Assembly (NCBI GenBank): GCA_001303785.1
Contig: LJUJ01000004.1
Coordinates: forward strand, 64,845 to 128,844
Direction of reading: 5' to 3'
DNA from: a candidate division WOR_3 bacterium SM23_42
Lineage (GTDB): Bacteria; Hydrothermota; Tepidihabitantia; SM23-42
Length of the DNA stretch: 64,000 nt
This document shows positions 16,983 through 31,579 of the stretch, piece by piece. The stretch's first letter is position 1. Each line of letters starts with the position of its first letter. The notes beneath the pieces are model-generated. The model did no database searches and was not told the DNA's origin. It saw only the letters and a program-made list of their open reading frames with translations. Position numbers and translations under genes: made by a program.

Positions 16983-17053
16983 TTATGTGCCTCCTTTGTT
17001 AGTAAAATGATATGTAGTTTTCTCTGAAAGTCAAGGCAAAAGTGGTAGGTAGA

Positions 17054-17081
17054 TTGACAAAGCGTGTTTGATGTGTACAAT
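17054..17081 (+). promoter_or_regulatory. sigma-70-type promoter (TTGACA-N16-TACAAT) for the small basic ORF
   Basis: TTGACA at 17054-17059, TACAAT at 17076-17081. SD GGAGAAGGAGG at 17082-17092, ATG at 17099. Confidence 0.4.
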
Positions 17082-17098
17082 GGAGAAGGAGGTTCAGC

Positions 17099-17269
17099 AT
17101 GAAAGAGCAGAGAAAAAAGGGTGAGCGACGAAAAAAGGAGAGACGCAAACTCCTGACGGAAAAGCAATTTCGTAAGCTTATCGAGGAGGGTAAGGTATCT
17201 AAATATGACGAAAGAGTATGGAAAAAGAGGCGCAAGACAAAGAGGCGTAGGAAGCAGATGGGTGTATAG
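17099..17269 (+). CDS. small (56 aa) highly basic Lys/Arg-rich protein, not in the ORF track
   Basis: ATG 7 nt after a strong SD (GGAGAAGGAGG) and behind a consensus promoter. Translation: MKEQRKKGERRKKERRKLLTEKQFRKLIEEGKVSKYDERVWKKRRKTKRRRKQMGV. Below the 60-aa cutoff of the supplied track. The opposite-strand ORFs 16999..17328 and 16931..17167 are considered spurious. Confidence 0.45.
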   Translation: MKEQRKKGERRKKERRKLLTEKQFRKLIEEGKVSKYDERVWKKRRKTKRRRKQMGV

Positions 17270-17321
17270 CGGATGATACGCATGTGCCTTGGGATATGCT
17301 CGGAATTGCGTGACAAAGACA

Positions 17322-17349
17322 TTGACATGCTATCTTATATGGGTATAAT
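17322..17349 (+). promoter_or_regulatory. sigma-70-type promoter (TTGACA-N16-TATAAT) upstream of the HU/IHF gene
   Basis: TTGACA at 17322-17327, TATAAT at 17344-17349. About 85-nt leader. AGGAGG SD before the ATG at 17434. Confidence 0.4.
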
Positions 17350-17433
17350 ACGCTGTTACTGTTCAGGTGTGTTGTTTTCAGCTCGGGGCAGTTTTATATT
17401 TCAAATATAAGGGTATATTGACAGCAAGGAGGA

Positions 17434-17733
17434 ATGATGCGAAGGGAATTTTTGATCGAAAAAATCGCCGAGAAGATTGGCCCAGCGTATACTAAAACAG
17501 ATATCGAAAAGTTGATTGATACGTTTTTGGATACGCTCTTTGAAATCTTGATACAAAACAAACGAGTCGAGTTGCGTAGGTTTGGAACTTTCGAGCTCCG
17601 AAAGAGGCCGGGCCGGAGTGCAAAGGCCCCCAAGAGTGGCAAGGTTTATACTCTTGCTGATCGATATGTACCATTCTTCCGTCCATCAAAGATATTCAAG
17701 AATATGGTTCAGGAAAGGACAAGGCCAGAGTAG
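17434..17733 (+). CDS. HU/IHF-family DNA-binding protein
   Basis: 99 aa. RRFGTFELRKRPGRSAKAPKSGKVYTLADRYVPFFRPSK matches the HU/IHF beta-arm (GFGxFxxRxRxxRxxRNPxTGxxxxIxxxxxxxFKxGK). Confidence 0.85.
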   Translation: MMRREFLIEKIAEKIGPAYTKTDIEKLIDTFLDTLFEILIQNKRVELRRFGTFELRKRPGRSAKAPKSGKVYTLADRYVPFFRPSKIFKNMVQERTRPE

Positions 17734-17880
17734 TCCTGAAACGTAATAGATCCGGAATACAACAATCTGATATCAGATAGCTAACAGTTGATATCAACAA
17801 ACCCCTGCAAGATGTCGGATTACTGATAGCTGATGATCGATACTGATATCTGTTATCCGTTGTCCGCTATCCGTTGATAG

Positions 17881-19464
17881 TTATCCGTTTAAGATCTTTT
17901 CGACTTCTTCCTTGTCAACATCCATGACATATGGAATTCCAGATATATTCGCAGCGTCTTTGGTCAGTGACGCGATGTCATCACGCGAGATATGTTTTAG
18001 GGCAAACTTACGATTGCCGGTCATTAGCTGTTTCAGGCCTTGGCCCATTCGTTCGACATATGTATAAACGCCAAGTGCTCCGGTTGGAACGCGGTCAAAA
18101 TCCTTACCCAATTCTTTTTTCAACTTTGATGCGGTTACGAATATCTCTTCTTTCTTGTTGCCAAAGCGCTCAATAAATACTGGAATTTCGTCCTCATCGA
18201 TCTTCTTGCCGATCGTTTTGCCGACCATAGCCGCACACAGAGGTCCGCGCGCCATACCGACAATCTTCGTGTACGGAGCACCCAGGGCGAGGGCCTTGAA
18301 GATTTGATCCTCGAAAGCGATACCACCAGCAAACGCGAGAGCTGGTACGTATTCACCCTTCTTTGCCAATTTATCTGTGTAGAAATAAGTCAAAGAATGA
18401 ATCTCGACCGGTGGCATACCCCATTCATTCATCATGTGCCAGGGACTCATACCAGTCCCGCCACCTGCTCCGTCCACAGTCAACAAGTCGATCTTCGCTT
18501 TCGAAGAGTATTTTACGGCTCGCGCCAGGTCGGCCGGACGGTAGGCACCCGTTTTCAAGAATACATACTTGGCTCCGGCTTTACGCAATTCCTCAACTCG
18601 TTTCATGAATGATTCTTCTTCGACCATGCCGATGCGTGAGTGTCGTTCAAATTCGGTAAATGTTTTGTGCTCAAACGCAGTGATGACATCGGGATCAAGC
18701 GGGTCCGGTAATACTACATAACCACGTTTTCTCAATATCTGTGCTTTCTTTAGATCTTTTATCTTCACCTCACCACCGATATCCTTGGCGCCTTGCCCCC
18801 ATTTCAACTCGACCGTTTCGACTCCGAGCTTTCGTATGGCAAATTCTTGCACACCGAGTCTCGTGTCTTCCACATTTGCCTGGACAATGATCATGCCATA
18901 GCCATCCCTTTGCCAGTCCTTGTAGAGTCGCACTCGGTTTTCAAGGTCGGGAGCCTTGAGTATTTTGTTATTCCTGATTTCACTCTTCATGTCCATGGCG
19001 ACAACATTTTCGCCTATTGTCAACATGGCTCCGGATAAGGCAGTGCCGATTGCCAATCCTTGCCAGTTATTCTTGGCGACATTAGTCGACCCTAGACCTG
19101 GAACGACCATCGGGAACTTCAGCTTGATGCCGTTGCCTGCGCCGAATCTCTGCTCGATATTGACGTTCGGAAAGATTGCCTTATCTGGATCAGCCTCGAT
19201 GCCGAAAGCACCAACCGCCGTGCCCATAATATTAAAATGAGAATAATCGACTGGATAGTTCTTCTCGGCGGCGGCGGTCAGTATGCCGAATGGTTGTGGG
19301 TATATTACCTCATGTCCGCGAATAGCAGATTTTCCAATTTCGCACATACCGATACACCCATCAACACACGTAACGCACATTCCGCTCAACGGAACAATAG
19401 AATCTTCGGTTCTGTTCTTTGTCAATGTTGCTGCTGAAGCATTCATTCTTGATAATGAAGGCAT
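17881..19464 (-). CDS. glutamate synthase-family FMN-binding protein (GltB central-domain-like), N-terminal Cys4 motif
   Basis: 527 aa. VDGAGGGTGMSPW and the surrounding TIM-barrel region resemble the FMN/FeS domain of the glutamate synthase large subunit (archaeal split type). N-terminal CVTCVDGCIGMC (CxxCxxxCxxxC). Good SD (GAAAGGAGAG) before the ATG. Lacks the amidotransferase and GXGXG domains. Confidence 0.8.
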   Translation of the reverse strand: MPSLSRMNASAATLTKNRTEDSIVPLSGMCVTCVDGCIGMCEIGKSAIRGHEVIYPQPFGILTAAAEKNYPVDYSHFNIMGTAVGAFGIEADPDKAIFPNVNIEQRFGAGNGIKLKFPMVVPGLGSTNVAKNNWQGLAIGTALSGAMLTIGENVVAMDMKSEIRNNKILKAPDLENRVRLYKDWQRDGYGMIIVQANVEDTRLGVQEFAIRKLGVETVELKWGQGAKDIGGEVKIKDLKKAQILRKRGYVVLPDPLDPDVITAFEHKTFTEFERHSRIGMVEEESFMKRVEELRKAGAKYVFLKTGAYRPADLARAVKYSSKAKIDLLTVDGAGGGTGMSPWHMMNEWGMPPVEIHSLTYFYTDKLAKKGEYVPALAFAGGIAFEDQIFKALALGAPYTKIVGMARGPLCAAMVGKTIGKKIDEDEIPVFIERFGNKKEEIFVTASKLKKELGKDFDRVPTGALGVYTYVERMGQGLKQLMTGNRKFALKHISRDDIASLTKDAANISGIPYVMDVDKEEVEKILNG

Positions 19465-19530
19465 ATTTTTCTCTCCTTTCGCTACTGATGACAGATAACT
19501 GATAACAGATGACTGCTTGGCATAGAGTGA

Positions 19531-19944
19531 TCAGCCATTATCAAGTCTGTCAAATATTTCTGTTTCATGTTTTTCACGTACTGACTGAATCAGATTAAAC
19601 AGCATACCACAGAGATCATTGTAGTCTTTGCTTAATCTGCGGTATGACTCTTTGTTTTCAAGCGATCCAGTTTCAAATAAATAATCTAAATGTTCAATTG
19701 TTTCTTGCGATGATGCATATGCGAGCGAGAGATAACGTAGATATTCGTTCTTATAGTGCCTCAAGGAAAAACCTTCAACGATGTTGCTGGAAACTGATTT
19801 AGACGACCCTCTTATTTGGCTTCCTTCTTCGTATAATTCGAATCGAGGGAGGCTTAAAGATATCTCATGAATTTCCAGTGCAAGCCTATGTGCTTGTTGA
19901 TAGACCTTGAGGTTCCGGTATCCTGTTTGTTTCTGGTGTTTCAT
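19531..19944 (-). CDS. four-helix-bundle protein (TIGR02436-type, '23S rRNA intervening-sequence protein' family)
   Basis: 137 aa. YRNLKVYQQAHRLALEIHEISLSLPRFELYEEGSQIRGSSKSVSSNIVEG is the signature of this family. The gene exactly fills the gap between the NuoG-like and GltB-like genes and is flanked by imperfect inverted repeats. Confidence 0.8.
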   Translation of the reverse strand: MKHQKQTGYRNLKVYQQAHRLALEIHEISLSLPRFELYEEGSQIRGSSKSVSSNIVEGFSLRHYKNEYLRYLSLAYASSQETIEHLDYLFETGSLENKESYRRLSKDYNDLCGMLFNLIQSVREKHETEIFDRLDNG

Positions 19945-19955
19945 ACAGTTATCCG

Positions 19956-20657
19956 TTATCTCTTATCTGACTTCTTCTGGTCCGGCCGTCCTTCGCATGT
20001 GCCGCAGTCACCCGTCGTAGCCATCCAGCATTGGTAATCTTCGTGGGCCTCGATACAGGTCGGTTCAAGAGAAAGACAGCCGCTGCACAAGTCGGTCATA
20101 GCATCTGGCCCCTGGCACCGCAGTTGGCATGCTGGACAAACATAGATGCATCCGCCACACAGGCGACACTCTTCGGACTTGATGTTAAAGGGAGTCTCGA
20201 TCTTTTTCTTATTGCCGCGGTTTGTAAAACCTATCGCACCCCCTTGCATTTGTTCCTTGCACATTCGAACACAGCGGCCGCAGAGCACGCAGTCTTCATG
20301 ACGCGCAGGGAAACGAACTGAGGTTACATGAAATTTGGACGCCAGGTCCTGAATCGTTTTTGATTGTGGACAGATTGAAACCAGTAATTCGATCATCATC
20401 TTGCGAGCATTGACTACGCGTTTTGTATTTGTGCGCACGATGAGCCCTTCTTCAACGGGATAGGTGCACGAGCTTACCAATTTGCTGTTCTCTCCTTTGT
20501 CTATTTCGACAAGACACAGACGGCAGCCACCGTAGGGTGATAATCCTTCGTAATAACAGAATGTTGGTATCTCAATACCGTAGAATTTGCAGGCTTCGAG
20601 AATGGTCGATCCTTCTTGAATCTGGACTTCGAGACCGTTCAGAATGAAGTTTATCAT
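19956..20657 (-). CDS. NuoG-N-terminal-like iron-sulfur protein: 2Fe-2S, His-ligated 4Fe-4S, 4Fe-4S; no H-cluster or molybdopterin domain (StnC/HydA-N-like)
   Basis: 233 aa. 2Fe-2S cysteines (CYYEGLSPYGGCRLCLV...SSC), HxxxCxxCxxxxxC (HEDCVLCGRCVRMC), CRLCGGCIYVCP, and a C-terminal Cys-rich tail. Confidence 0.8.
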   Translation of the reverse strand: MINFILNGLEVQIQEGSTILEACKFYGIEIPTFCYYEGLSPYGGCRLCLVEIDKGENSKLVSSCTYPVEEGLIVRTNTKRVVNARKMMIELLVSICPQSKTIQDLASKFHVTSVRFPARHEDCVLCGRCVRMCKEQMQGGAIGFTNRGNKKKIETPFNIKSEECRLCGGCIYVCPACQLRCQGPDAMTDLCSGCLSLEPTCIEAHEDYQCWMATTGDCGTCEGRPDQKKSDKR

Positions 20658-23600
20658 TTTTGCTCCTTTTCATCTTCATCTCTTACTTCTAGATCACATC
20701 TCAAGCATCTCTTTGCTTCTTTGATTGCTGCACTTTTTTTGAGCCCAAGGTCTACTTCATTGAAATTCTTCGCACGCTTGCGAGGGTCGAGTTTCCAGGT
20801 TACTTGCCGTGTACTTTCCAATGTTTCCTTTACCGTCAACTTGACTGGTTCGACGTAGATTGATGGTCTAGTCACTCTATACTCAAACTTGATTTCCTTA
20901 TCGCTTAGATACTGGTCAATGGCTTTGGCCGCTTTTTTGCCGTCGGCCATTGCGTCAATAACCGAACTGGGACCGCGTATCGCATCACCGCCCGCAAAGA
21001 CTCCCGGAATATTGGTTGCGAGTGTTTCTTCATTTACGACAAATGTATTCCAACCCGTTATTTCGAAATTGTGATCCTTCTTCAAGAAAGAAATATCGGG
21101 CTGCTCGCTGATAGCCGAGATCAGAGTATCCAACTCAAATACCGATTCGGATCCCTTAATTGGTATCGGACGACGCCGTCCGCTTTGGTCAACAGCCCCG
21201 AGTTCCATCCGTGTACACTTCACACCCGCAACGCGGCCGTCTTTCATGACGATTTCAGTGGGTGCGGTGAGGAATTGTATATTGATCCCTTCTTCAAGTG
21301 CGGCTTCTATCTCTTCCGCATATGCGGGCATTTCGTTCCTCGTTCTGCGATAGATGATTGTGACATCGTCTACTTGCGGGAGTCGGTTAGCGGCGCGAGC
21401 TGCATCGACAGCTGAATTACCGCCGCCGATTACACCAATCCTGGCGCCAATATTGGTTTTTTCGCTCAGACTTTGCTTGGTGAGAAATTCCATTGCCGGT
21501 ACTACACCCGCTGTATCTTCGTTCGGTATTCCCAATTTTATGCTTTTGTGTGCACCGATCGCAATATACACGGCTTTGTAACCCTGTTTAAATAGCTGAT
21601 CCAGTGTAAAATCGCGACCCAGTTTCTGATTAGTCATGACCTCCGCCCCGGCGCGGACTACCCGATCGATGTCCTCCTTTAATGCTTTTTTTGGAAGCCG
21701 ATAAGCTGGAATGCCGACGGCAAGCATGCCTCCGGCAACCGGCAGTGCCTCAAAAACAGTCGAAGCATAGCCTCTGCATGCCAGATCATGCGCAGCCATT
21801 AGGCCGGACGGTCCAGACCCGATTATCGCGACCTTGGCACCAGACGGTTTACGCCTCTTGGATGTTCGTTTTCTAGTGCTACTGTGCTCAATGGCCGCGC
21901 GCTTCAGGGCTCGAATCGAAATTGGTTTGCCACCTTGCCCAGCACGGCACTTTGTTTCACATGGGTGATGGCAAACGCGAGCGCAGATATTGAGCAGTGG
22001 GTTGTCCTTCAGGATAATATCGTATGCCTTATCAAATTGTCCGTGAGCGATATACGCAATGTATTGAGGTGCTTCTGTGTCAATCGGACATGTATGCTGA
22101 CACGGCGAGGAGATGATATGCTTGCACACAACTGCAGGACATCTCTTGTATTTTATGTGTGCCTGGTATTCGTCCCTGAAATATCTGAGAGTGCTGAGTA
22201 CGGGATTGGCTGCGGTTTGCCCCAACCCGCACATTGAAGCATCTTTGGTCGCGACTGCGAGTTCCTCCAGTAATGGGATATCCTCAGGACGCCCTCTGCC
22301 TTTGGTAATCTTATCGAGTATCTCCCAAATTCGCTGCGTGCCTTCACGACACGACAGACACTTGCCGCAAGATTCGTCACGTAGAAAGTTCATGAAGTAT
22401 TTCGCCACATCGACCATGCATGTGTCTTCGTCCATGACAATCATGCCGCCCGAACCCATCATCGAGCCTGCTTGTTTCAGACTTTCGTAGTCAATTGTAA
22501 GATCAAGGAGATTTTCGGGTATGCAACCGCCAGATGGACCCCCGGTCTGGACAGCCTTAATTTTCTTATTATTGGGTATTCCACCACCAATTTCGTAGAT
22601 GATATCTTTCATGGTGATGCCCATCGGGACTTCCACGAGACCCGTATTGCTAATTTTGCCTACGAGGGAGAAGATTTTCGTACCCTTGCTACCTTCAGTA
22701 CCGATCGCTGAATACCAATCGGCACCACGTAGAATAATGTGGGGTACGTTCGCCCACGTTTCAACGTTGTTTATGTTAGTCGGTTTTCTCCACAATCCTT
22801 GTTTTACAGGATATGGCGGACGTTGTTTTGGGATGCCAATCTTACCTTCTATGGCTGCGAGTAATGAGGTTTCTTCTCCGGATACGAATGCACCGGCGCC
22901 TCTTTTTACTTCAATCGAAAAATCAAAACCGGTGTGGAGCACATTCTTACCAAGTAGTCCATATTCCTCTGCCTGCTCTATTGCGATTTTGATTCTCCTC
23001 AAAGCGAGAGGGTATTCTGTACGTACATAAATGAAACCTTTTGCAGCCTCGATTGCCCGCGCTCCGATGATCATGCCTTCCAGAACCGCGTGGGGATCTG
23101 CTTCGAGTATGCTGCGATCCATGAAGGCACCGGGATCACCCTCGTCTGCGTTGCACACCACATACTTCGAATTTCCTGCAGTCTTATGGCACAGCTCCCA
23201 TTTGAGCCCGGTTGGAAACCCTGCACCTCCGCGGCCTCTTAGGCCGGCATCTTTGACTTCTTTTATGATATCTTCAGGAGTCATGTCAGTTAATGCTTTT
23301 TCGAGTGCCCGGTAGCCATCAAAGGCAATATACTCGTCAATATTTTCCGGATCGATTCGCCCACGGTTTCTTAGTACGATCAGACGTTGATGTTTGAAAA
23401 ATCCTATGTCCATCATTCTAGGTATTGGCGCAGCTTCGGTTGGCGGTACATACATCAGTTTCTTGACCGGCCTTCCCTTAATGAGGTGTTCTTCAACGAG
23501 AAGGGGGATGTCTTCCCGCTTCAGGCGTTGATAGAATATTCCGTCCGGTTGCACAACAACAATCGGCCCTCTTTCGCAAAAACCGTTGCATCCTGTGGAG

Positions 23601-23731
23601 ATGATTGCCACTTCATTCTGCAATTTTCTTTTCGTGATTTCTTTCTCTAACGTTGTCTTGATTTCAAAAGAGCCTGCCGCCACACAGCCTGTCCCGGCAC
23701 AGACGAGTAGATGCGTGCGATACTGTTTCAA
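20654..23731 (-). CDS. fusion protein: thioredoxin-like 2Fe-2S domain + NuoF-like FMN/NADH-binding 51-kDa subunit + GltD-like FAD/NAD(P)H oxidoreductase with FeS (HydB/NuoF-GltD fusion as in Stn/Nfn-Bfu-type complexes)
   Basis: 1025 aa. N-terminus CAGTGC...CNGFC. NuoF motifs GRGGAGFPTGLKWE, ADEGDPGAFMDRS, CGKCLSCREG. GltD-like N-terminal FeS cysteines (CPAVVCKHIISSPCQHTCP, CARVCHHPCETKC). Rossmann fold KVAIIGSGPSGLMAAHDLA and a second dinucleotide site IGVIGGGNSAVD. FAD motif VFAGGDAIRG. Confidence 0.85.
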   Translation of the reverse strand: MKQYRTHLLVCAGTGCVAAGSFEIKTTLEKEITKRKLQNEVAIISTGCNGFCERGPIVVVQPDGIFYQRLKREDIPLLVEEHLIKGRPVKKLMYVPPTEAAPIPRMMDIGFFKHQRLIVLRNRGRIDPENIDEYIAFDGYRALEKALTDMTPEDIIKEVKDAGLRGRGGAGFPTGLKWELCHKTAGNSKYVVCNADEGDPGAFMDRSILEADPHAVLEGMIIGARAIEAAKGFIYVRTEYPLALRRIKIAIEQAEEYGLLGKNVLHTGFDFSIEVKRGAGAFVSGEETSLLAAIEGKIGIPKQRPPYPVKQGLWRKPTNINNVETWANVPHIILRGADWYSAIGTEGSKGTKIFSLVGKISNTGLVEVPMGITMKDIIYEIGGGIPNNKKIKAVQTGGPSGGCIPENLLDLTIDYESLKQAGSMMGSGGMIVMDEDTCMVDVAKYFMNFLRDESCGKCLSCREGTQRIWEILDKITKGRGRPEDIPLLEELAVATKDASMCGLGQTAANPVLSTLRYFRDEYQAHIKYKRCPAVVCKHIISSPCQHTCPIDTEAPQYIAYIAHGQFDKAYDIILKDNPLLNICARVCHHPCETKCRAGQGGKPISIRALKRAAIEHSSTRKRTSKRRKPSGAKVAIIGSGPSGLMAAHDLACRGYASTVFEALPVAGGMLAVGIPAYRLPKKALKEDIDRVVRAGAEVMTNQKLGRDFTLDQLFKQGYKAVYIAIGAHKSIKLGIPNEDTAGVVPAMEFLTKQSLSEKTNIGARIGVIGGGNSAVDAARAANRLPQVDDVTIIYRRTRNEMPAYAEEIEAALEEGINIQFLTAPTEIVMKDGRVAGVKCTRMELGAVDQSGRRRPIPIKGSESVFELDTLISAISEQPDISFLKKDHNFEITGWNTFVVNEETLATNIPGVFAGGDAIRGPSSVIDAMADGKKAAKAIDQYLSDKEIKFEYRVTRPSIYVEPVKLTVKETLESTRQVTWKLDPRKRAKNFNEVDLGLKKSAAIKEAKRCLRCDLEVRDEDEKEQK

Positions 23732-23923: not shown

Positions 23924-24307
23924 TCAGTGCGTCCTCTCACTGCCAATCGCAAGGGCGTACTCATTGACAATATCACCTTTGACAATATGCCTTTCCAGGA
24001 TTTTTCTCATTTTCTCTGGCGTCAGGTCAACGTATTTAACTGGTGGTTTGCCGGTAATTTCCACTGTGGCCATAGGTTCTCGGCTGCAAAGTCCTGCGCA
24101 ACCCGATGTCGTGACAATCACATCATCGAGTTTCTTCTTCCGGATATCCTTGAGTAGTCCTGTGAGCACATCACGCGCACCGGCAGCAATGCCGCATGTT
24201 CCCATATGCACGGTAACCTTTGCCCGTGCCTTGCCTTGGCGTAGGACTGCAGTCCTTCTGACCTTGTCACGTATTTTTTCCAAATCGCCAATCTTTAATT
24301 TCTTCAC
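23924..24307 (-). CDS. NuoE-like thioredoxin-fold [2Fe-2S] ferredoxin (HydC/24-kDa subunit-like)
   Basis: Cys spacing CGIAAG...C...CAGLC, typical of NuoE/HndA. The ORF-track start at 24346 is a TTG overlapping the upstream gene by 80 nt. A GTG at 24307 preceded by AAGGAG-N6 is preferred. Confidence 0.75.
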   Translation of the reverse strand: MKKLKIGDLEKIRDKVRRTAVLRQGKARAKVTVHMGTCGIAAGARDVLTGLLKDIRKKKLDDVIVTTSGCAGLCSREPMATVEITGKPPVKYVDLTPEKMRKILERHIVKGDIVNEYALAIGSERTH

Positions 24308-24860
24308 TTTTTGCTCCTTTCTGAATTGCCTGTAATCCCTCCTCAATTTGTTCTCTTAGAAACAGGATTATTTCAGGGTCGTTGATTGCCACTCCGTTAA
24401 GTCTCTTTTTGATTTCTTTGGTGCTAAAGATAAACTCTTGGTCGCCCTTACGGTGACGGTATTTGAAATCTGCTTTGGGGCTGCTACCCGCAATGCAGGT
24501 AGTAATCGTCTCGGCCATGTTTCCGAGAGGCTTTCGATCGATGTGATCATATACGAACCTCGCGGTGATTCTTGTGCCCTTACCTGGTTTCGATCTAACG
24601 TCGAGGCTGCCGGCGGCTTCTTTTGTAGCCTGAGCGAGCATTGAAAGCCCCAAACCAACTCTTCTCGTTCCTTTCGTTGTATAGAACGGATCAATCGACT
24701 TGGTGAGGGTCTCTTTGTCCATTCCTCTACCATCGTCATTGATCTTGATGAGTAGCAAATTCCCGACGATGTCCTCTTCGATCACAATCTCAATGTTCGT
24801 TGCCCCAGCAGCCACAGAATTTTCGATGATGTCCAATATGTGGAGCGAGAGGTCTTCCAT
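24267..24860 (-). CDS. histidine-kinase-like ATPase (HATPase_c) domain protein, kinase-like component of the hydrogenase-associated regulatory module
   Basis: 197 aa. N-box/G-box-like INDDGRGMD, GLGLSMLAQ. No DHp or sensor domain. Confidence 0.6.
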   Translation of the reverse strand: MEDLSLHILDIIENSVAAGATNIEIVIEEDIVGNLLLIKINDDGRGMDKETLTKSIDPFYTTKGTRRVGLGLSMLAQATKEAAGSLDVRSKPGKGTRITARFVYDHIDRKPLGNMAETITTCIAGSSPKADFKYRHRKGDQEFIFSTKEIKKRLNGVAINDPEIILFLREQIEEGLQAIQKGAKSEEIKDWRFGKNT

Positions 24861-24862
24861 GT

Positions 24863-25612
24863 CTAAGCCTCCAGCATCACGGAACGTCCTTGCTTAACTT
24901 TGAATGCTTTGCCTAGTTCTTCGATGGTCGGTGCAGCAATCCTGAAGCGAGCGATTACCTTGCCGATTTCGTCCAGACTGTGAGCATCAGATGACGATAT
25001 CAGTGAGAACTTCTCTATTTGAGGCGCCATCTTGGCTGCCTCGGCATGGGTGATTGAAGAGGAAATCTCCAAGGCATCAAGTTCGAGACCCTCAGGTATG
25101 AATCCCAATTGACCGATGATACTGTAGGCTTCCCGGTCGATGTGAGAAGCAATGGCCAAGCCGTCCAACCGGTGAATCTCTTGAACGGTGTCGCTAATCG
25201 ACAGATTTGTTGCGCCGATCAACAATCTGTGGTTGTAACCCTCGACTTCATCGAATTCATTGGCAATGATCTGCTCACCGAACAACTTTTCTTTGTTCTC
25301 GCCGGGTGCAAGGTTCTGATATACTAATTGCTGCATTATCAGAGCAGTATCGACGTCTTTAAATAATCCGATAACGTGAACTTCTTCCGAACTGGTGATT
25401 TCCATGCCAGCAAGCACGGTTAGACTCGTGTCTCGAGCCGCGTTCGCTGCGGCCCTTAGGTTTTCCGCTGAGTTATGGTCACATATTGCGATCATATCGA
25501 GTTTCTTGGCAAGCGCGGCCTTGACTACTCTCCTGGGGGACATTGTCAAATCCGCGCAGGGTGATAGACACGTATGAATGTGCAGATCCGCACGATAGCA
25601 TCGCAACATCAA
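24863..25612 (-). CDS. PHP (polymerase/histidinol-phosphatase) family metal-dependent phosphoesterase
   Basis: 249 aa. ADLHIHTCLSPCAD, ICDHNSAENL, IASHID and SSDAH histidine/aspartate metal-binding motifs. Confidence 0.75.
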   Translation of the reverse strand: MMLRCYRADLHIHTCLSPCADLTMSPRRVVKAALAKKLDMIAICDHNSAENLRAAANAARDTSLTVLAGMEITSSEEVHVIGLFKDVDTALIMQQLVYQNLAPGENKEKLFGEQIIANEFDEVEGYNHRLLIGATNLSISDTVQEIHRLDGLAIASHIDREAYSIIGQLGFIPEGLELDALEISSSITHAEAAKMAPQIEKFSLISSSDAHSLDEIGKVIARFRIAAPTIEELGKAFKVKQGRSVMLEA

Positions 25613-25968
25613 CGCTTTCCGCTGATACCCATTTCATATAGTCTGCCTACCAATTCGAAAGCCGGTGAATCACTTGTCATTATTGGCAGGCCTTCGGATT
25701 CGGCCTTTTCTATAGTCTCCTTTTCTGGCATACGTCCATTGATCATCACGATCCCTGCGATTTCTTTTAACATTGCCACAGCTACGACATTCGGATGCAC
25801 TTGCAAAGTTATCCAGACATCACCCTTCTTACTATTTGCCATCACATCACTCAGAAGGTCACTCGAGTAACCTCCGCATACTTCTTTGTCTAGTTGTTGC
25901 TCTCCACATGCTACTTGGAGATTAAGCGATTTGACTATCTCGGTAAGCTTCATCTTGCTTTTCTCCAT
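25609..25968 (-). CDS. DRTGG domain protein
   Basis: 119 aa. Pattern G..SDLLSDVM...GDVWITLQVHPNVVAVAMLKEIAGIVMINGRMPE is typical of the stand-alone DRTGG domain found with CBS/phosphatase regulators. Start may be the internal M (MKLTEI). Confidence 0.6.
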   Translation of the reverse strand: MEKSKMKLTEIVKSLNLQVACGEQQLDKEVCGGYSSDLLSDVMANSKKGDVWITLQVHPNVVAVAMLKEIAGIVMINGRMPEKETIEKAESEGLPIMTSDSPAFELVGRLYEMGISGKR

Positions 25969-27248
25969 TTTTTTTCACCTTGCGATTCATTTCTGCTAAT
26001 GTATATGCAATCCTCTGGTTTTGCTTCACCACGCACGATATCTTCAGCCAGGGTCTGACAATCTGGAGCGCCGCATACCCCGCAATCGGTGCCGGGAAGC
26101 TTGCCAACCAGTTCCTCTTTCATTTTCAATTTTTCGATCGCTACGCCACGGTCTGCGTCAAGTGGTGGAAAGGACTTGGGCTCAACCGCCCAAGCAAATG
26201 AAAAGAAATTTTCTTTGTAGAGTTTCTGCACTAATTCGGTATTCACTCTTCTCTTTCCGCCAAAATGCCTTAGAAGTCTTAGGACATTACTCTTGGCGAC
26301 AAATCTGTTCTCTACGGTAAGCGGACCACCAATACATCCATCTGGGCATACCAGACATTCGAGATACTCGATATTACGCAATCTCCCTGATTCCACATCT
26401 TCGAGAATGCGGATCGTATCCAGCAAACCAGACACCGAAACAGTGTTGGAGTATTTGAGTCCCCTGATTTCACCACCCTCAAAGGCCCAGCCAATTCCGA
26501 CGCCGCTAATGCGTGTTTGTGTCTGCATCATCAACAGCCCGGCCTCTTGCTTCAGTTTCATCATTACTTTGTTGTATATTTCTCGTATGGAAATTGCGCC
26601 ATCAAGATGCGATTTTGCCATACTTTCGGGATGATTAATCGACACCATCTTGGCCGAACACGGCGTGATGTGGATGATACCGATTTCTTCAGCCTTGAGC
26701 TCCTCCTGTTTTGCTGTCTCACTACGCAAATTCTTTGCTGCGATTTCGCGAGGCGGCTCGAGTGGCAAAATGTTGCCACAGAGACTTGGGAACAGCCTCT
26801 GCACAAGCCGCACAACAACCGGGCATATTGATGAGATTATGGGTCGGGGAGATCTGTTCTCGTCGAGGTACTCTTCAGTGGCGACGCTCATCATTTCGCA
26901 GACCAATGCCTCGTCATACACATGGTCAAAGCCGATTTCTTTGAGTACGGTCAGAATCTCAGAAGGCATTGATTGTTGGCCAAATTGAGTGTAAAGTACA
27001 GGCGAAGGTAACGCGATTTTGAATTTGAAGCGATTGAGATCAGAGAGGAGAGTCGTTAGTGGTATTATAGCGCTGTGGGGGCACGCCCTGAGACATTCGC
27101 CACAGTCAATGCATCTTTCGTAATTGATATGTGCCTTCTGTTCGCGGACGCGTATTGCCTTTGTTGGACACACCTTCATACAAGTGACGCAACCAATGCA
27201 CTTTGCCTTATCAACTTTTATGGAGTGAAAGTATGTTTGTTCAGCCAT
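25950..27248 (-). CDS. [FeFe]-hydrogenase-like protein of the putative sensory type (HydS-like): 2x 4Fe-4S ferredoxin + H-cluster domain with altered motifs + C-terminal Cx2Cx4Cx16C; no PAS domain
   Basis: 432 aa. CIGCVTCMKVCP and CIDCGECLRACP. L1 is SSICP (canonical TSCCP; first Cys replaced by Ile). L2 is TPCSAK (MPCxxK). L3 is EYLECLVCPDGCIGGP (ExMACxxGCxxGG). C-terminal CGVCGAPDCQTLAEDIVRGEAKPEDC. Flanked by kinase-like, DRTGG and PHP genes. Confidence 0.8.
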   Translation of the reverse strand: MAEQTYFHSIKVDKAKCIGCVTCMKVCPTKAIRVREQKAHINYERCIDCGECLRACPHSAIIPLTTLLSDLNRFKFKIALPSPVLYTQFGQQSMPSEILTVLKEIGFDHVYDEALVCEMMSVATEEYLDENRSPRPIISSICPVVVRLVQRLFPSLCGNILPLEPPREIAAKNLRSETAKQEELKAEEIGIIHITPCSAKMVSINHPESMAKSHLDGAISIREIYNKVMMKLKQEAGLLMMQTQTRISGVGIGWAFEGGEIRGLKYSNTVSVSGLLDTIRILEDVESGRLRNIEYLECLVCPDGCIGGPLTVENRFVAKSNVLRLLRHFGGKRRVNTELVQKLYKENFFSFAWAVEPKSFPPLDADRGVAIEKLKMKEELVGKLPGTDCGVCGAPDCQTLAEDIVRGEAKPEDCIYISRNESQGEKKWRKAR

Positions 27249-27720
27249 TCTTTCCGTTCAGAAGAATCTTAATTTCCAAGCTTGTACCTTGCCCTACTTT
27301 TGAAGTTATTTGGAAAACATCAGAGTTCTTCTTTATATTAGGCAGACCCATTCCAGCACCAAATCCCATTTCTCTCATTTCTTCTGTTGCGGTCGAGAAC
27401 CCGGGTTTCATTGCCAACTCAATATTCTCTATGCCTGGCCCTTTATCGTCGATTATCAGTAATATGTTGTCCTGATATACGTTTATTTTCATCGTGCCGT
27501 GTTGGGCATACATCACTACATTCATTTCTGCTTCATATGCAGCAATAGCGATGCGTCTTATTATATCACTATTGATACCAATCTCCCGCAGAGTGTTTCT
27601 TATCTTACACGACGATTCGCCAGCATTGACGAAGTCACCACCTTGTATTTCGAATTCTTGCTGGAACAAAACCCTATTTTTCATTCCTTTTCTCTTCATC
27701 TCCATATGTGGACGCACCAC
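27241..27720 (-). CDS. RsbW/SpoIIAB-like anti-sigma-factor-type Ser/Thr kinase (HATPase_c only)
   Basis: Roughly 145-159 aa. IDDKGPGIEN, GFGAGMGLPNI. Track start 27720 is a GTG; internal ATGs at 27705, 27699 and 27684 are alternatives. Confidence 0.65.
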   Translation of the reverse strand: MVRPHMEMKRKGMKNRVLFQQEFEIQGGDFVNAGESSCKIRNTLREIGINSDIIRRIAIAAYEAEMNVVMYAQHGTMKINVYQDNILLIIDDKGPGIENIELAMKPGFSTATEEMREMGFGAGMGLPNIKKNSDVFQITSKVGQGTSLEIKILLNGKNG

Positions 27721-28063
27721 TTACGCCATTCGTATATAGTATACCGCATACTTCGTACATCTTCAATTTTGTTGTCAGGAGAGGAATGTTACATTGTTGA
27801 GCTAGTTCGATTGTCTCAGCCGATGGATTCTTGCCCCGCACGAAGACGATTGCTCCAATCCCCGCGATTTCACAAGTTCTCACAACTTGTTTGTTAGTAA
27901 GTCCGGTGATGAGCAAGGTGTTGCGATCTGAGAAGGGTTGGGAAAATGCAAGAACATCACTCATCAAATCTGATGCCTTGGCAAATTTTATATCAATGCT
28001 GTGCGCTTCTTGTTCTGAGACTAATTCTGCGTTCAGCAGTTCTCTAATTTGGGAAAGGATCAT
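27674..28063 (-). CDS. DRTGG domain protein
   Basis: 129 aa. DLMSDVLAFSQP...TLLITGLTNKQVVRTCEIAGIGAIVFVRGKNP. Second stand-alone DRTGG in the module. Confidence 0.6.
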   Translation of the reverse strand: MILSQIRELLNAELVSEQEAHSIDIKFAKASDLMSDVLAFSQPFSDRNTLLITGLTNKQVVRTCEIAGIGAIVFVRGKNPSAETIELAQQCNIPLLTTKLKMYEVCGILYTNGVSGASTYGDEEKRNEK

Positions 28064-28066
28064 CTG

Positions 28067-28567
28067 CTACTTTTTTCTTTTTCGAGTTACCTTTCTTTTG
28101 TGTTTCTTTTTCTTATATTGATCGATTATTTGGTCAACCTTCTGGACAGTGGACTGTCCATAATACTTACCATCGACCACAACTATGGGTGCCAAAGCGC
28201 AAGCGCCCAAGCAGTTAACACTTTCCAACGTGAAGTTCTCATCTGCAGTTGTGCAACCGGGTTCGATTTTAAGCTTGTTCTTCACTCGATCCAGGACCGT
28301 TGGTGCACCTCGCACGTGGCATGCTGTGCCGAGGCACACGGTTACGACATGTTTGCCCCTGGGTGTGAGGCTAAAGGCTCGATAGAATGTCGCGACACTG
28401 TAGACATCGATCAGGGGAATGCACAATCTATTTGATATCAGTCTCAGTGCTTCAGGAGGGAGCCAATTGTATTTCTCTTGTACATCTTGTAGAACTGAAA
28501 TTAACGATGATTTTTCATTGTGATATCTTTCAACTATTTTTGTCAGATCTTGCGCGTTGATTTTCAT
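28067..28567 (-). CDS. NuoE-family [2Fe-2S] protein (NADH dehydrogenase 24-kDa subunit / HydC / HoxE-like)
   Basis: 166 aa. CLGTACHVRGAP...CLGACALAPIVVVDGKYY is the canonical NuoE cysteine pattern. Lys-rich C-terminal tail. First gene of the operon, directly behind the promoter. Confidence 0.85.
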   Translation of the reverse strand: MKINAQDLTKIVERYHNEKSSLISVLQDVQEKYNWLPPEALRLISNRLCIPLIDVYSVATFYRAFSLTPRGKHVVTVCLGTACHVRGAPTVLDRVKNKLKIEPGCTTADENFTLESVNCLGACALAPIVVVDGKYYGQSTVQKVDQIIDQYKKKKHKRKVTRKRKK

Positions 28568-28590: not shown

Positions 28591-28618
28591 ATTATACCTA
28601 TTTTTCCGCGATAGTCAA
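28591..28618 (-). promoter_or_regulatory. near-consensus sigma-70 promoter (TTGACT-N16-TATAAT) of the NuoE/HydS-like operon
   Basis: Minus strand reads ...ctgtatgTTGACTatcgcggaaaaataggTATAATaatgaccacgagAAAGGAGtcatATG. ATG is at 28567. Confidence 0.45.
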
Positions 28619-28705: not shown

Positions 28706-28735
28706 AAAAAAAAGCCGGGTTCAATCGAACCCGGC
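28706..28735 (-). terminator. rho-independent terminator of gdh (9-bp GC-rich stem, 4-nt loop, U8 tract)
   Basis: Plus strand aaaaaaaaGCCGGGTTCaatcGAACCCGGC. On the minus strand the hairpin is followed by TTTTTTTT, 22 nt after the gdh stop. Confidence 0.7.
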
Positions 28736-28756: not shown

Positions 28757-30040
28757 CTAGTTTCTACCTATTCTACCAAACATACGGACAGAATCTGCCA
28801 CGCGCTGTACGGCCAATATATAGGCGGCATGACGCATATCGGTTCTGTGTTTGTCGGCGGCTCGTACAACATCCCAGAATGCTCTTTGCATCATCCGGTA
28901 ACACCTTTCGTTGACCTCTTCTTCGCTCAGGAAATATTTCTGTAAATCCTGAATCCACTCTAGGTACGATACAGTAACGCCACCAGCATTAGCTAAGATG
29001 TCGGGGATTACAAAGATTCTTTTAGCGTTCAATATCTCATCTGCTTCATTGGTTGTTGGCCCATTGGCGCCTTCGCATATCACTCTTGCTTTGATCTTAT
29101 CAGCATTCTTAGAATTTATCATGCCTTCGATTGCGCAGGGGAGAAGGATGTCACACTTCAGATTGATAAGTTCTTCATTCATGATGGAATCATGTTGCTT
29201 AAATCCAGATACGGTTTTTGCCCTTGCAACATAATTGTCCAGTTCAGGGATATTTATGCCGTTTCTGTTATATATGCCGCCATAAATGTCAGTTATCGCA
29301 ACAATCTTACAGCCATAATTGTATAAGAGTTGGGCAATAGAGGCACCAACGTTGCCATAACCTATGATGGCAATTCGCTTGCCTTCGAGCGGGTATTCGA
29401 GGTGTTTGGACGCCTCGATCAATGCATAATACATACCAAGACCGGTAGCACCGCTTCTGCCCTTTGAACCCCCGCATTCTAATGGCTTGCCTGTCACTAC
29501 CGCAGGCTCGAAATGTCCGACATATCTGCTGTATGCATCACATATCCATGCCATGGTTCGGGCATTGGTCCAGACGTCTGGCGCAGGGATATCTTTGTTC
29601 GGTCCAATTATATCCTTGATTGAATATGTGTATTCCTTGGTCAGTTTTTCCAGGTCGCTTTCGGTCATTTCGGGCGGATTGCAGATGACTGCACCCTTAG
29701 CACCACCTAAGGGTAAATCCAGCACTGCAGTCTTCCAAGTCATCCAGGCAGCGAGTGCTTTACATTCACTCAAGGAAGCATCCGGGCTGTATCTTATGCC
29801 GCCTTTACCCGGGCCTCGCGTGGTGCTGTGCTGAACCCGATAACCAGTATATGTCTCAACCTTGCCGTCGTCGCGTGTGATTGTCATGTGCACTGTGAGT
29901 TCTTTTTCCGGAAACTTCAAGCGATTGTAAATCCAGGGTTCGAGGTCGAGCGTGGATGCAGCTCTTTCATACTGCACTGTCGCCTCGATGAACGGATCGT
30001 ATTTCTTCTGCCTAAGTTTTGCGTCATTTATTTTTACCAT
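28757..30040 (-). CDS. gdhA: NAD(P)-dependent glutamate dehydrogenase
   Basis: Glu/Leu/Phe/Val dehydrogenase motifs (LGGAKGAVICNP; Rossmann IIGYGNVGAS). ORF track starts at 30052 (MEAFM...). The second ATG at 30040 has a GGAGG SD at optimal spacing and is preferred. Confidence 0.9.
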   Translation of the reverse strand: MVKINDAKLRQKKYDPFIEATVQYERAASTLDLEPWIYNRLKFPEKELTVHMTITRDDGKVETYTGYRVQHSTTRGPGKGGIRYSPDASLSECKALAAWMTWKTAVLDLPLGGAKGAVICNPPEMTESDLEKLTKEYTYSIKDIIGPNKDIPAPDVWTNARTMAWICDAYSRYVGHFEPAVVTGKPLECGGSKGRSGATGLGMYYALIEASKHLEYPLEGKRIAIIGYGNVGASIAQLLYNYGCKIVAITDIYGGIYNRNGINIPELDNYVARAKTVSGFKQHDSIMNEELINLKCDILLPCAIEGMINSKNADKIKARVICEGANGPTTNEADEILNAKRIFVIPDILANAGGVTVSYLEWIQDLQKYFLSEEEVNERCYRMMQRAFWDVVRAADKHRTDMRHAAYILAVQRVADSVRMFGRIGRN

Positions 30041-30066
30041 GAAAGCCTCCATCTGTCGCTATATAG

Positions 30067-30220: not shown

Positions 30221-31579
30221 CTACTTGAGTTTCTTTATTTTCCTGAAAAGTGACGTTGGATGTATGCCTAGTATTCGTGCAGCTTTGGACTTGTTGCCGC
30301 CCGTGTGTTTAAGTACTTGTTTGATATATTGTTTCTCCAAATCTTCGAGGCTCAGGAATTTCTCTTCTTCAAGACTTTCTCTAATGACTGGCGGTGGGCC
30401 TTGTTGCATCGTAATTTCGGTTGGCAGGTGATCGACGCTGATTTCTTCGGCGCTGTGTAGAGCCATTGTTCTTTCTATGATATTCCTCAATTCCCTGACG
30501 TTACCGGGCCAGTCGTACTCATGTAGAGCTTTGGCTGCATCTGCAGATATACCTTTGAATGAACGATGGAGTTCGGTATTGAAATTCTCAATGATATGAA
30601 GAGTAAGCGGTATGATATCATCTTTTCGTTCCCGGAGTGGTGGTATGGCAATTGGTACGACGTTCAATCGGTAAAATAGGTCTTCTCGGAAATTGCCCGC
30701 TTCTATTTCCCTTTTCAAATTTTTGTTTGTAGCCGCAATAATGCGAATATCTACGGCTATCTGGTTAGTCCCGCCGAGACGCTTGAATGATTGGTCCTCG
30801 AGTACCTTGAGAACTTTCGCCTGAAGCGGGAGTGGCATGTCAGCGATTTCATCGAGGAATACTGTACCGCGATCTGCTTTCTCCAATAATCCTATTTTCC
30901 GGCGTCGCGCGTCGGTAAACGCGCCGGCTTCGTGCCCAAATAGTTCACTTTCCATGAGGGTTTCGGGAATAGCAGCGCAGTTTATTTCTAGGAATGGTGC
31001 ATCAGCCCGCGTGCTGTTATAATGTATGGCGCGTGCCAGGAGTTCTTTCCCCACGCCGCTTTCGCCAGTTATGAGAATCGTTGTTTTTTCTAATGGTGCG
31101 ACCCGACGTGCGGTTTGCACCGCTTGTGTCATTTTCTTGCTCTCAGCAATGATTCGGTTGAAATAGTATTTTCCTTTCTCACTTTCCACCGTGTCTGATA
31201 CACGCACGCGTAGAGACTGCAATTCGAGTGCCCGAGCGATACTGGCCTTCAATTCATTCAATTTGAAGGGTTTCATAAGGTAGTCGTACGCGCCCAGTTT
31301 CATTGCTTTAATGGCTTTTTCAATGATTTCGTAAGCAGTTATCATGATGACAACGGTATTTGAATCACATTCTTTTATTTGCTTCAGCACCTCAATGCCG
31401 TCGACACCCGGAAGCATCAAATCAACCAATGCAAGGTTGGGTCGGTGTTTCTTGAAAAACTCGATGCCGTTTTCACCTGAATCAGCTAGTAAAATCTCGT
31501 ACCCTTCCTTCTCCAGTGCTTTCTTCAGGTTTGTAAGCGTCAGAACCTCATCATCAACAATAAGAACCGATGCAGCCAT
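30221..31579 (-). CDS. sigma-54-dependent response regulator (NtrC family: REC + AAA+ sigma-54 activation + Fis-type HTH)
   Basis: 452 aa. REC (LIVDDE...D54-like DLMLPGVDG), Walker A GESGVGKE, GAFTDA (GAFTGA motif), ESELFGHE, C-terminal HTH AARILGIHPTSLFRKIKK. Confidence 0.9.
   Translation of the reverse strand: MAASVLIVDDEVLTLTNLKKALEKEGYEILLADSGENGIEFFKKHRPNLALVDLMLPGVDGIEVLKQIKECDSNTVVIMITAYEIIEKAIKAMKLGAYDYLMKPFKLNELKASIARALELQSLRVRVSDTVESEKGKYYFNRIIAESKKMTQAVQTARRVAPLEKTTILITGESGVGKELLARAIHYNSTRADAPFLEINCAAIPETLMESELFGHEAGAFTDARRRKIGLLEKADRGTVFLDEIADMPLPLQAKVLKVLEDQSFKRLGGTNQIAVDIRIIAATNKNLKREIEAGNFREDLFYRLNVVPIAIPPLRERKDDIIPLTLHIIENFNTELHRSFKGISADAAKALHEYDWPGNVRELRNIIERTMALHSAEEISVDHLPTEITMQQGPPPVIRESLEEEKFLSLEDLEKQYIKQVLKHTGGNKSKAARILGIHPTSLFRKIKKLK

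Follow-up and report, generated by a model that had tools for sequence, protein, structure and literature searches.

The window analyzed here, a stretch of 64,000 nucleotides (nt) from the genome of the candidate division WOR_3 bacterium SM23_42 (contig LJUJ01000004.1, positions 64,845 to 128,844), encodes a fusion of the flavoprotein subunit BfuB (NuoF/HydB) to a GltD-like module and, close by, a separate protein related to the flavin mononucleotide (FMN) domain of the glutamate synthase large subunit GltB. On balance these proteins appear to belong to a soluble multi-subunit iron-sulfur flavoprotein of the Bfu (HydABC) type, in which the hydrogenase domain is replaced by the separate GltB-like subunit. 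The third reaction of this complex, to which we incline with some reserve, would be a GltS-like reductive amination of 2-oxoglutarate with ammonia to give glutamate. A preliminary description of this DNA had proposed that an NADH/ferredoxin module is wired to a GltB-type active site, and gene linkage, motifs and the gene clusters of sister proteins support this as far as sequence analysis goes. Twelve enzyme types have been described in the Bfu family, with H2, formate, NADP, F420, aldehydes, pyruvate, CO, benzoyl-CoA, menaquinone and H2O2 as third substrates (PMC9304861). A GltB-like subunit occurs in none of the twelve types in that paper and its supplement, and a search of the literature for Bfu enzymes that have a subunit resembling glutamate synthase yielded no description of one. 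The system is best viewed as a Bfu enzyme of a new kind, linked to a divergent offshoot of the glutamate-synthase FMN-domain superfamily.

The Bfu core and its constant partner

The open reading frames predicted at 17881-23731 all lie on the minus strand and coincide in their coordinates with those of the preliminary description. In the 1025-amino acid (aa) protein Pfam recognizes, in order, 2Fe-2S_thioredx (residues 5-80), Complex1_51K (159-331), SLBB (354-402), NADH_4Fe-4S (441-525), Fer4_20 (PF14691; 523-619) and Pyr_redox_2 (PF07992; 633-931), and matches to TIGR01316 and PRK12771 in NCBIfam agree with the GltD-like part. PDB sequence searches align residues 3-541 with HydB/BfuB from bifurcating hydrogenases of known structure, and residues 542-1013 with the GltD-like part of NfnA/StnC (102-567). 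The order that had been read off the translation, namely a thioredoxin-like 2Fe-2S domain, a NuoF module, the GltD iron-sulfur site and two Rossmann folds, is thus borne out by all three kinds of match, and mapping of the domain boundaries with hidden Markov models confirms the architecture. Fusions of HydB to GltA are known in archaeal hybrid hydrogenases (PMC11216029).

Bifurcating BfuB proteins are defined by the extra clusters B2-B5, a His/Cys-ligated B2 and the motifs DEGDPGAFMDR and GAGAFV; the ligands of the B2 [2Fe-2S] cluster are C438, H525, C531 and C536, with Thr or Cys at position 476 (PMC9304861). All these positions are in place in the window BfuB (C438, T476, H525, C531, C536), and about 62 of the 64 sequences in the alignment keep the ligands, position 476 being either Thr or Ser. 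The segments VCNADEGDPGAFMDRS and RGAGAFVSGEETSL of the window protein match the bifurcating-type DEGDPGAFMDR and GAGAFV motifs (Supplementary Figure 10 of PMC9304861), its NuoF core matches PF01512 and PF10589, and the N-terminal thioredoxin-like [2Fe-2S] domain that carries B5 is recognized as PF01257 at residues 5-80. The C-terminal domain with two [4Fe-4S] clusters of the ferredoxin type (B3/B4), through which ferredoxin electrons are proposed to pass, is absent, and the Fer4_20 module of GltD stands in its place; unfused BfuB relatives, of about 616 aa, have the canonical HydB end CxxCxxCxxxCP...CxxCxxCxxxC. The BfuA protein combines an N-terminal [2Fe-2S] domain (Fer2_4) with two CxxCxxCxxxC [4Fe-4S] motifs and a C-terminal tail with eight cysteines; all 20 of its cysteines are invariant across 56 loci, and its best PDB match is WorA (9mqx_A). 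BfuC carries a [2Fe-2S] site (PF01257). The NuoE-like subunit of most other phyla is longer, at about 282 aa, with a Cys-rich, zinc-ribbon-like C-terminal extension (as at L010, 5234-6082, and some 50 other loci; cluster c3) that the window protein of 166 aa lacks, and the longer gene often follows one whose Cys-rich product, of about 117 aa, matches no Pfam family (L030, 3422-3772; cluster c7).

The linkage of these genes was examined by running the window proteins by tblastn against 80 fetched related loci, the Bfu-coupled set, with the count for each gene restricted to loci whose flanks were long enough. In all 75 loci that qualify for BfuA, its gene immediately precedes that of the GltB-like protein (in 73 within 300 nt, in two with an inserted gene for a four-helix-bundle protein), a NuoF-type gene lies upstream of it in 66 of 66 and a NuoE-type gene in 52 of 54. 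The BfuB and BfuA genes mostly overlap by 4 nt, as the BfuA start and BfuB stop do in the window, and the gap between the BfuA and GltB-like genes has a median of about 21 nt. The recurrence of this gene order in essentially every one of the 80 loci is not due to chance. The GltD module is less constant: of the 61 loci with sufficient flank, 46 have the fused and 15 the unfused type, and single phyla contain both. What stays constant is thus the set of NuoE, NuoF, a short NuoG N-terminus and the GltB-like protein, and GltD is an optional replacement of the C-terminal ferredoxin domain. As the fusion is optional, the core is BfuABC plus the GltB-like subunit rather than a pair of GltD and GltB; the co-occurrence anticipated in the preliminary description holds for BfuA and the NuoF- and NuoE-type genes, while the pairing of GltD with GltB that it stressed proves facultative.

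Within the operon the GltB-like protein is under the strongest constraint, as judged by median identity to the window proteins (GltB-like 73%, BfuA 58%, NuoF part 57%, NuoE 50%, GltD part 46%). Its closest database relatives are from metagenome-assembled genomes (MAGs) of Candidatus Stahlbacteria/WOR-3, and it remains about 73-75% identical across about 20 phyla, including Aminicenantes, Zixibacteria, Planctomycetota, Ignavibacteria, Latescibacterota, KSB1, Krumholzibacteria, Acidobacteriota, Firmicutes, Spirochaetes, Marinimicrobia, Fibrobacterota, Verrucomicrobiota, Desulfobacterota-type MAGs and several others. The protein is found in more than 8000 database clusters, and counting one genome per species there are matches in at least 581 species. 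A search seeded with a deltaproteobacterial homolog for a cultured host returned MAGs only. In a MAG of Dethiobacter alkaliphilus, a cultured species, an unfused Bfu operon is immediately preceded by a second GltB-like paralog, which is more divergent (L049, 3096-11581) and is flanked by two genes for 266-aa, regulator-like proteins that look IclR-like by eye. A protein of about 1000 aa, with a receiver-like N-terminus and a body resembling PEP-utilizing enzymes, adjoins both Bfu-coupled GltB-like genes (L012, L017, L033, L043, L046, L061, L075 and L078; cluster c8) and stand-alone ones (L132 and 10 others; cluster c3 of the second set).

Among known enzymes, those of Bfu Type 2, such as the tungsten aldehyde oxidoreductase WorABCSL (PDB 9MQX), have the same bifurcating-type BfuBC core, and both in them and in the window operon a short BfuA without the large C-terminal domain recruits, or would recruit, a separate catalytic subunit. 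WorABCSL differs in that the recruited subunit is a tungstopterin enzyme rather than an FMN/Fe-S GltB-like protein, in that WorA ends in a zinc finger and adaptor helix instead of the conserved eight-Cys tail, and in having a BfuB that lacks the GltD fusion usual in the present family. NfnABC and StnABC (PDB 9N5U, 8OH5, 9BOV), Bfu-type NADH-dependent ferredoxin:NADP oxidoreductases, likewise join a Bfu core to a GltD/NfnL-like module for flavin adenine dinucleotide (FAD) and NADPH. That module is inserted in BfuA in those enzymes, but forms the C-terminus of BfuB in the window, where BfuA is only 233 aa long; in the present family it is also dispensable, and there is always a fourth, GltB-like subunit.

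The GltB-like subunit and its stand-alone sisters

The sole Pfam match of the 527-aa GltB-like protein is PF01645 (Glu_synthase), at 54.1 bits over residues 280-409 (gathering cutoff 20.4 bits), and in its relatives, too, a weak and partial match to this family is all that Pfam detects. No NCBIfam model matches the protein, and PDB sequence searches with it and with the family profile recovered neither GltS nor any other meaningful relative. A HMMER scan of 1.84 billion cluster representatives with the family gave 1108 matches at E<=0.001, which indicates that it is compact and well apart from classical GltB. For a direct comparison, the sequence and numbering of the Synechocystis ferredoxin-dependent glutamate synthase (Fd-GltS, 1LLW) were recovered from PDB alignments and aligned by hhalign to the GltB-like family profile, with a thin template of three sequences; the alignment spans 283 columns at 22% identity. 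It pairs G151-E152 of the window protein with G902-E903 of Fd-GltS, R202-L-G-V with R949-F-G-V, E219-x-K221 with E964-x-K966, Q224-G-A-K227 with Q969-G-A-K972 and E232 with Q978; DGAGGGTGMSP falls on SGHDGGTGASP, which holds the GGTGASP phosphate loop, and AGG on DGG. We take E903, Q969, K972, Q978 and R992 of Fd-GltS to be catalytic or 2-oxoglutarate-site residues, the residue types agreeing with 1LLW. The FMN-binding and catalytic GltS motifs are thus kept on profile alignment, as the preliminary description would have it, with the equivalents of E903, Q969 and K972 and the phosphate loop among them, but Arg992, presumably a ligand of 2-oxoglutarate, has no clear counterpart. At the corresponding strand the protein lacks the His/Arg motif that is catalytic in alpha-hydroxy-acid oxidases.

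An AlphaFold2 (AF2) model computed from an alignment that includes divergent relatives (predicted local distance difference test, pLDDT, 83) is an FMN TIM barrel, that is, a (beta/alpha)8 barrel with a GGTGASP-type phosphate loop. A first model, from a shallow alignment (pLDDT 62, with generic FMN barrels as Foldseek matches), was too poor and was discarded. No cysteine of the GltB-like protein aligns with the [3Fe-4S] triad that follows barrel strand 8 in GltS (C1137, C1143, C1148). Its sole invariant cysteines are C30, C33, C37 and C41, kept across 138 sequences of all three subfamilies discussed below, and this N-terminal four-Cys motif is presumed to be a [4Fe-4S] site and the only cluster site of the protein. 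Amidotransferase, central and GXGXG domains were found neither in the protein nor elsewhere in the window, nor among the conserved neighbors of the 165 Bfu-coupled and sister loci. Of the initial view of the protein as a stand-alone GltB domain, the FMN domain, the N-terminal CxxCxxxCxxxC motif and the lack of an amidotransferase hold, whereas the 3Fe-4S type does not. The complex would share with GltBD and Fd-GltS (PDB 1EA0, 6S6S, 1LLW) the pairing of a GltD-type NADPH/FAD/2x[4Fe-4S] module with a GltB-type FMN barrel, and would differ from them in the missing domains, in its cluster site, in having no clear counterpart of Arg992 and in receiving its electrons via the Bfu core.

The family extends beyond the Bfu-coupled operons. 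P0122 shares 50% identity with the window protein and represents a second subfamily, itself 73-88% conserved in Actinobacteria, Planctomycetota, Omnitrophica, Armatimonadota and Firestonebacteria, and a metagenome scan added a third. These sister subfamilies, each about 50% identical to the window protein, mostly stand alone, with any Bfu gene present in only four of 85 loci (L081-L165). Nitrogen-assimilation genes are common beside them: at least one occurs in 49 of the 85 loci, and the neighbors comprise gdhA (26 loci, often 130-500 nt downstream on the same strand), a GAF-ANTAR regulator (13), glnA (10; 28 nt upstream in L084), carB (10), carA (9), purF (7), nrpR (6), amtB (5), PII (4) and pyrG (4). 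Examples of such clusters are L084 (4651-13483) and L111 (2055-14328). In a comparison of the 138 sequences, 126 positions are invariant (at least 95%, and identical in all three subfamilies), among them all the GltS-like motifs and the four cysteines, whereas 17 are subfamily-specific, mostly with conservative changes. Because so many invariant positions are shared and so few are subfamily-specific, the Bfu-coupled and stand-alone proteins almost certainly catalyze the same reaction. The occurrence of sister proteins with the same active-site residues in nitrogen-assimilation clusters backs a reading in terms of glutamate and ammonia, and makes the stand-alone proteins a widespread candidate nitrogen-assimilation enzyme in their own right.

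A more distant relative, P0243 (37% identical), is fused to an FrhB-type F420 module. An F420-dependent glutamate synthase in which FrhB is fused to a GltB-type unit has been proposed (PMC3448663, PMC9012536). It resembles the present system in coupling a catalytic unit of the GltB-domain-2 type to an exchangeable electron-input module, and differs in using FrhB/F420 rather than Bfu as donor, in being archaeal and in being known as a proposal. In L111 (3466-5762) and L141 (5545-7814) a pair of NfnA-like and NfnB/GltD-like genes lies between glnA and gdhA, upstream of a stand-alone GltB-like gene. This pair was considered as a dedicated GltD partner and rejected, as it consists of NfnA-like and NfnB-like proteins; the transhydrogenase-type module is not homologous to the Bfu-GltD fusion.

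Gene layout and genomic surroundings

Downstream of the fusion gene come those for BfuA, for the 137-aa four-helix-bundle protein and for the GltB-like protein, which is thus the third gene after the fusion and not the next but one, as it had been placed (Table 1). A four-helix-bundle gene between bfuA and the GltB-like gene occurs in only the window and the two loci closest to it, L002 (9521-9892) and L003 (9515-9892), all others having some 20 nt at this place, and is a lineage-specific insertion outside the conserved unit. A small [2Fe-2S] ferredoxin gene is also found in L002, L003, L006, L047, L050 and L059.

Table 1. Features of the operon and its surroundings, in window coordinates
Feature	Position	Strand	Evidence
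GltB-like FMN/Fe-S subunit, 527 aa; proposed catalytic subunit for the third substrate	17881..19464	-	PF01645, AF2 model, hhalign
Codons of C30-x2-C33-x3-C37-x3-C41, presumed [4Fe-4S] electron entry site	19342..19377	-	Invariant in 138 sequences
Four-helix-bundle protein, 137 aa, 23S rRNA IVS protein family	19531..19944	-	PF05635/TIGR02436
Short BfuA (NuoG/HydA-N-terminal-like), 233 aa	19956..20657	-	Fer2_4 and Fer4 domains; best PDB match 9mqx_A
BfuB (NuoF/HydB)-GltD fusion, 1025 aa	20654..23731	-	Pfam, NCBIfam and PDB sequence matches
GltD/NfnB-like module, aa 542-1013: two [4Fe-4S] motifs, FAD and NAD(P)H Rossmann folds	20693..22108	-	Fer4_20, Pyr_redox_2
BfuB part, aa 5-541: N-terminal [2Fe-2S], NADH/FMN site, B1 [4Fe-4S], B2 ligands	22109..23719	-	Collinear with A. 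mobile NiFe-BfuB 3-541
Small thioredoxin-like [2Fe-2S] ferredoxin	23924..24346	-	Weak PF01257 and NF041612 matches
Six-gene regulatory cassette: DRTGG, HATPase, HydS-like sensor, DRTGG, PHP, HATPase	24267..28063	-	Pfam
BfuC (NuoE/HydC-like [2Fe-2S] subunit), 166 aa, first gene of the operon	28067..28567	-	PF01257 at 180 bits
Sigma-70-like promoter TTGACT-16-TATAAT before bfuC	28591..28618	-	Consensus match only
Hairpin and T8 terminator after the glutamate dehydrogenase gene	28706..28735	-	Read from sequence
Glutamate dehydrogenase family gene	28757..30052	-	NF040817 at 489 bits
Sigma-54-dependent response regulator	30221..31579	-	Pfam
dCache/PAS histidine kinase	31579..33789	-	Pfam

The six-gene cassette splits the operon between bfuC and bfuB, and occurs in L002, L003 and L050 as well. 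Its sensor, of 432 aa, resembles [FeFe] hydrogenases and contains Fe_hyd_lg_C and PF04060 domains. Cassettes of this kind usually accompany HydABC hydrogenases, and the presence of one here suggests H2 or redox sensing for an operon that lacks a hydrogenase.

The glutamate dehydrogenase (GDH) gene adjoins the Bfu operon but is probably transcribed separately, because a hairpin with a T8 terminator follows it and bfuC is preceded by a promoter match of its own; co-transcription of the two was rejected on account of this terminator 3' of the GDH gene. A GDH-family gene lies near the Bfu-coupled operon in 17 of the 80 loci as well as in the window. Sigma-54 activators are found upstream in 33 of 81 loci, and the pair of a kinase and a sigma-54 response regulator lies upstream in about 30. 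A search of the window for sigma-54 sites of the -24/-12 type gave chance-level counts and no convincing site in the relevant intergenic regions; regulation by the adjacent sigma-54 activator is thus not supported in the window, where bfuC has instead a sigma-70-like promoter.

Directly upstream of the sensor kinase, at 33927-35373 on the minus strand, are genes for a carbon-nitrogen hydrolase of the nitrilase/omega-amidase superfamily and a LUD-domain protein, a pair not seen as conserved neighbors at other loci. The interval of about 900 nt between mreB and the GltB-like gene (16983-17880) contains no convincing gene, and has two plus-strand sigma-70 consensus matches at 17054-17081 and 17322-17349, the latter matching at 12 of 12 positions. 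Rfam and tRNA scans of the window were empty. The rest of it is ordinary chromosome, with mreBCD/pbp2/rodA, peptidase, phosphoenolpyruvate carboxykinase (PEPCK) and cell-envelope genes.

Proposed reaction, competing explanations and implications

In the mechanism that we propose, electrons from NADH would enter at the FMN of BfuB, and those of reduced ferredoxin and/or NADPH via the clusters and FAD of GltD or, in the unfused forms, via B3/B4. The merged electrons would leave via B1 and run through BfuA, with its Cys-rich tail, into the GltB-like subunit by way of its N-terminal cluster and FMN; there 2-iminoglutarate, formed from 2-oxoglutarate and free ammonia, would be reduced to L-glutamate. 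The outcome would be an ATP-independent glutamate synthase without an amidotransferase, driven by low-potential electrons. Such an enzyme might serve in high-affinity ammonium assimilation, or as an electron sink beside GDH, for example when H2 accumulates; the hydrogenase-like sensor of the cassette would fit the latter, although this is speculation. The direction could be confurcation onto the substrate or an exergonic amination by NADH that drives ferredoxin reduction, with neither of the two favored. By our own estimate from the GDH equilibrium, the couple of 2-oxoglutarate plus NH4+ and glutamate lies at about -0.13 V under standard conditions and falls, by the same kind of estimate, towards -0.28 to -0.34 V when ammonium is in the micromolar to millimolar range and 2-oxoglutarate is low relative to glutamate. 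A combined drive of about -0.39 V from NADH and ferredoxin would then make assimilation effectively irreversible without ATP. More tentatively, the family as a whole might be an unrecognized class of glutamate synthases without amidotransferase, driven by ferredoxin or Bfu modules to aminate 2-oxoglutarate reductively with free ammonia, with the window type as its bifurcation-coupled form; this amination would then be a new third reaction for the Bfu family.

Several observations weigh against reductive amination as the third reaction. Kinship with GltS is remote: PF01645 covers only 130 residues, PDB profile searches miss GltS, and the hhalign probability is 58% with a three-sequence template. 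The position of R992 aligns to the non-conserved I243, with a variable R245 and an invariant R247 close by, and Q978 of GltS is replaced by Glu (E232). Loss of the ferredoxin-binding B3/B4 domain leaves the fused form with no evident docking site for ferredoxin. At about -0.13 V NADH alone suffices, so that coupling to ferredoxin is left unexplained, and with GDH next door a second ammonia-dependent glutamate-forming enzyme looks redundant. For the Bfu-coupled subfamily, the link to nitrogen assimilation consists of GDH, glnA in three loci and the sister families; amtB, PII, nrpR, purF, carAB and pyrG were all absent among the neighbors of the Bfu-coupled loci.

Some of these points would be accommodated if the complex were the same but its chemistry different, the GltB-like subunit acting on another 2-oxo or imino acid, a cyclic imine or an unrelated electron sink, and the Bfu core merely supplying or accepting electrons. 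We regard this as rather unlikely, though deserving of serious consideration. It would account for the non-conservation of the Arg992 equivalent and the Glu at Q978, and homologs of GltB domain 2 with different reactions do exist, such as the N-methylglutamate synthase MgsB (PMC6237917). The dCache sensor kinase upstream suggests induction by an external small molecule, and the pyrG, purF and carAB neighbors of the sister families are also genes of nucleotide biosynthesis. Against it stand the retention of the GltS-specific motifs GE(N), E-x-K-x-x-QGAK and DGxxGGTGxSP and the absence of the alpha-hydroxy-acid oxidase His/Arg motif, while the recurrent glnA, gdhA, amtB, PII and nrpR neighbors point specifically to the ammonia/glutamate node.

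It is also conceivable, but very improbable, that the reaction runs in an oxidative mode, in which the GltB-like subunit would oxidize glutamate or another amino acid and the Bfu core would send the electrons to NAD+ and ferredoxin or NADP+ in amino-acid fermentation. The hosts do look like peptide degraders, with M42, S9 and M23 peptidases in the window, the neighboring GDH is of an archaeal or catabolic-looking type, and Bfu enzymes are reversible (PMC9304861). However, a couple which we estimate at about -0.13 V has much too positive a potential for the joint reduction of NAD+ and ferredoxin at realistic metabolite ratios, rendering a glutamate-degrading role thermodynamically implausible, and the sister families sit in assimilatory clusters. 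Least probable of all is the alternative raised in the preliminary description, that BfuC, BfuB-GltD and BfuA form a pure Nfn/Stn-type transhydrogenase of NADH, NADPH and ferredoxin with an independent GltB-family neighbor: despite the match of the GltD module to the NADPH-binding part of NfnA/StnC, the full set of bifurcating signatures in BfuB and the fitting context of NfnAB-like genes beside gdhA and a stand-alone GltB-like gene in L111 and L141, the GltB-like gene follows that of BfuA in 75 of 75 loci with gaps of about 20 nt and is the most conserved of the set, the eight-Cys tail of BfuA has no other obvious client, and 15 of 61 loci keep BfuABC and the GltB-like protein without the GltD/NADPH module, so that those complexes cannot be transhydrogenases.

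A possible experimental lead to the reductive amination that we favor comes from Geobacter sulfurreducens, in which GSU1235-GSU1239 form a five-gene RpoN-dependent operon that is treated as glutamine:2-oxoglutarate aminotransferase (GOGAT) and is co-induced with glnA (PMC2725144, PMC6964889). According to the annotation, two of its genes encode small hypothetical proteins and the others a pyridine nucleotide-disulphide oxidoreductase, an Fe-S cluster-binding protein and a protein related to glutamate synthase (PMC2725144); in metabolic models the operon is used as GOGAT. The five-gene layout is alike by annotation, and the operon is a candidate relative and a lead. The sigma-54 dependence of the Geobacter operon has a parallel in the sigma-54 activators upstream of many of the loci described above. 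The Geobacter papers speak of GOGAT only, with no mention of a NuoF/Bfu module or of bifurcation.

For bioenergetics, the GltB-like module would add a nitrogen- or amino-acid-linked third reaction to the Bfu family, and the natural series of operons with and without the GltD/NADPH module offers a test of how the Bfu core handles a comparatively high-potential acceptor. Should the substrate prove to be different, the operon would still encode a large, conserved redox complex worth characterizing. For nitrogen metabolism, the family is very widespread, unusually conserved and found in glnA/gdhA/amtB/PII clusters, yet has no assigned reaction. If it does form glutamate without glutamine or ATP, models of ammonium assimilation for anaerobes of sediments, digesters and the subsurface, perhaps including Geobacter, would need revision, and many uncultured anaerobic phyla would gain an ATP-independent route for ammonium assimilation or electron disposal driven by low-potential electrons.

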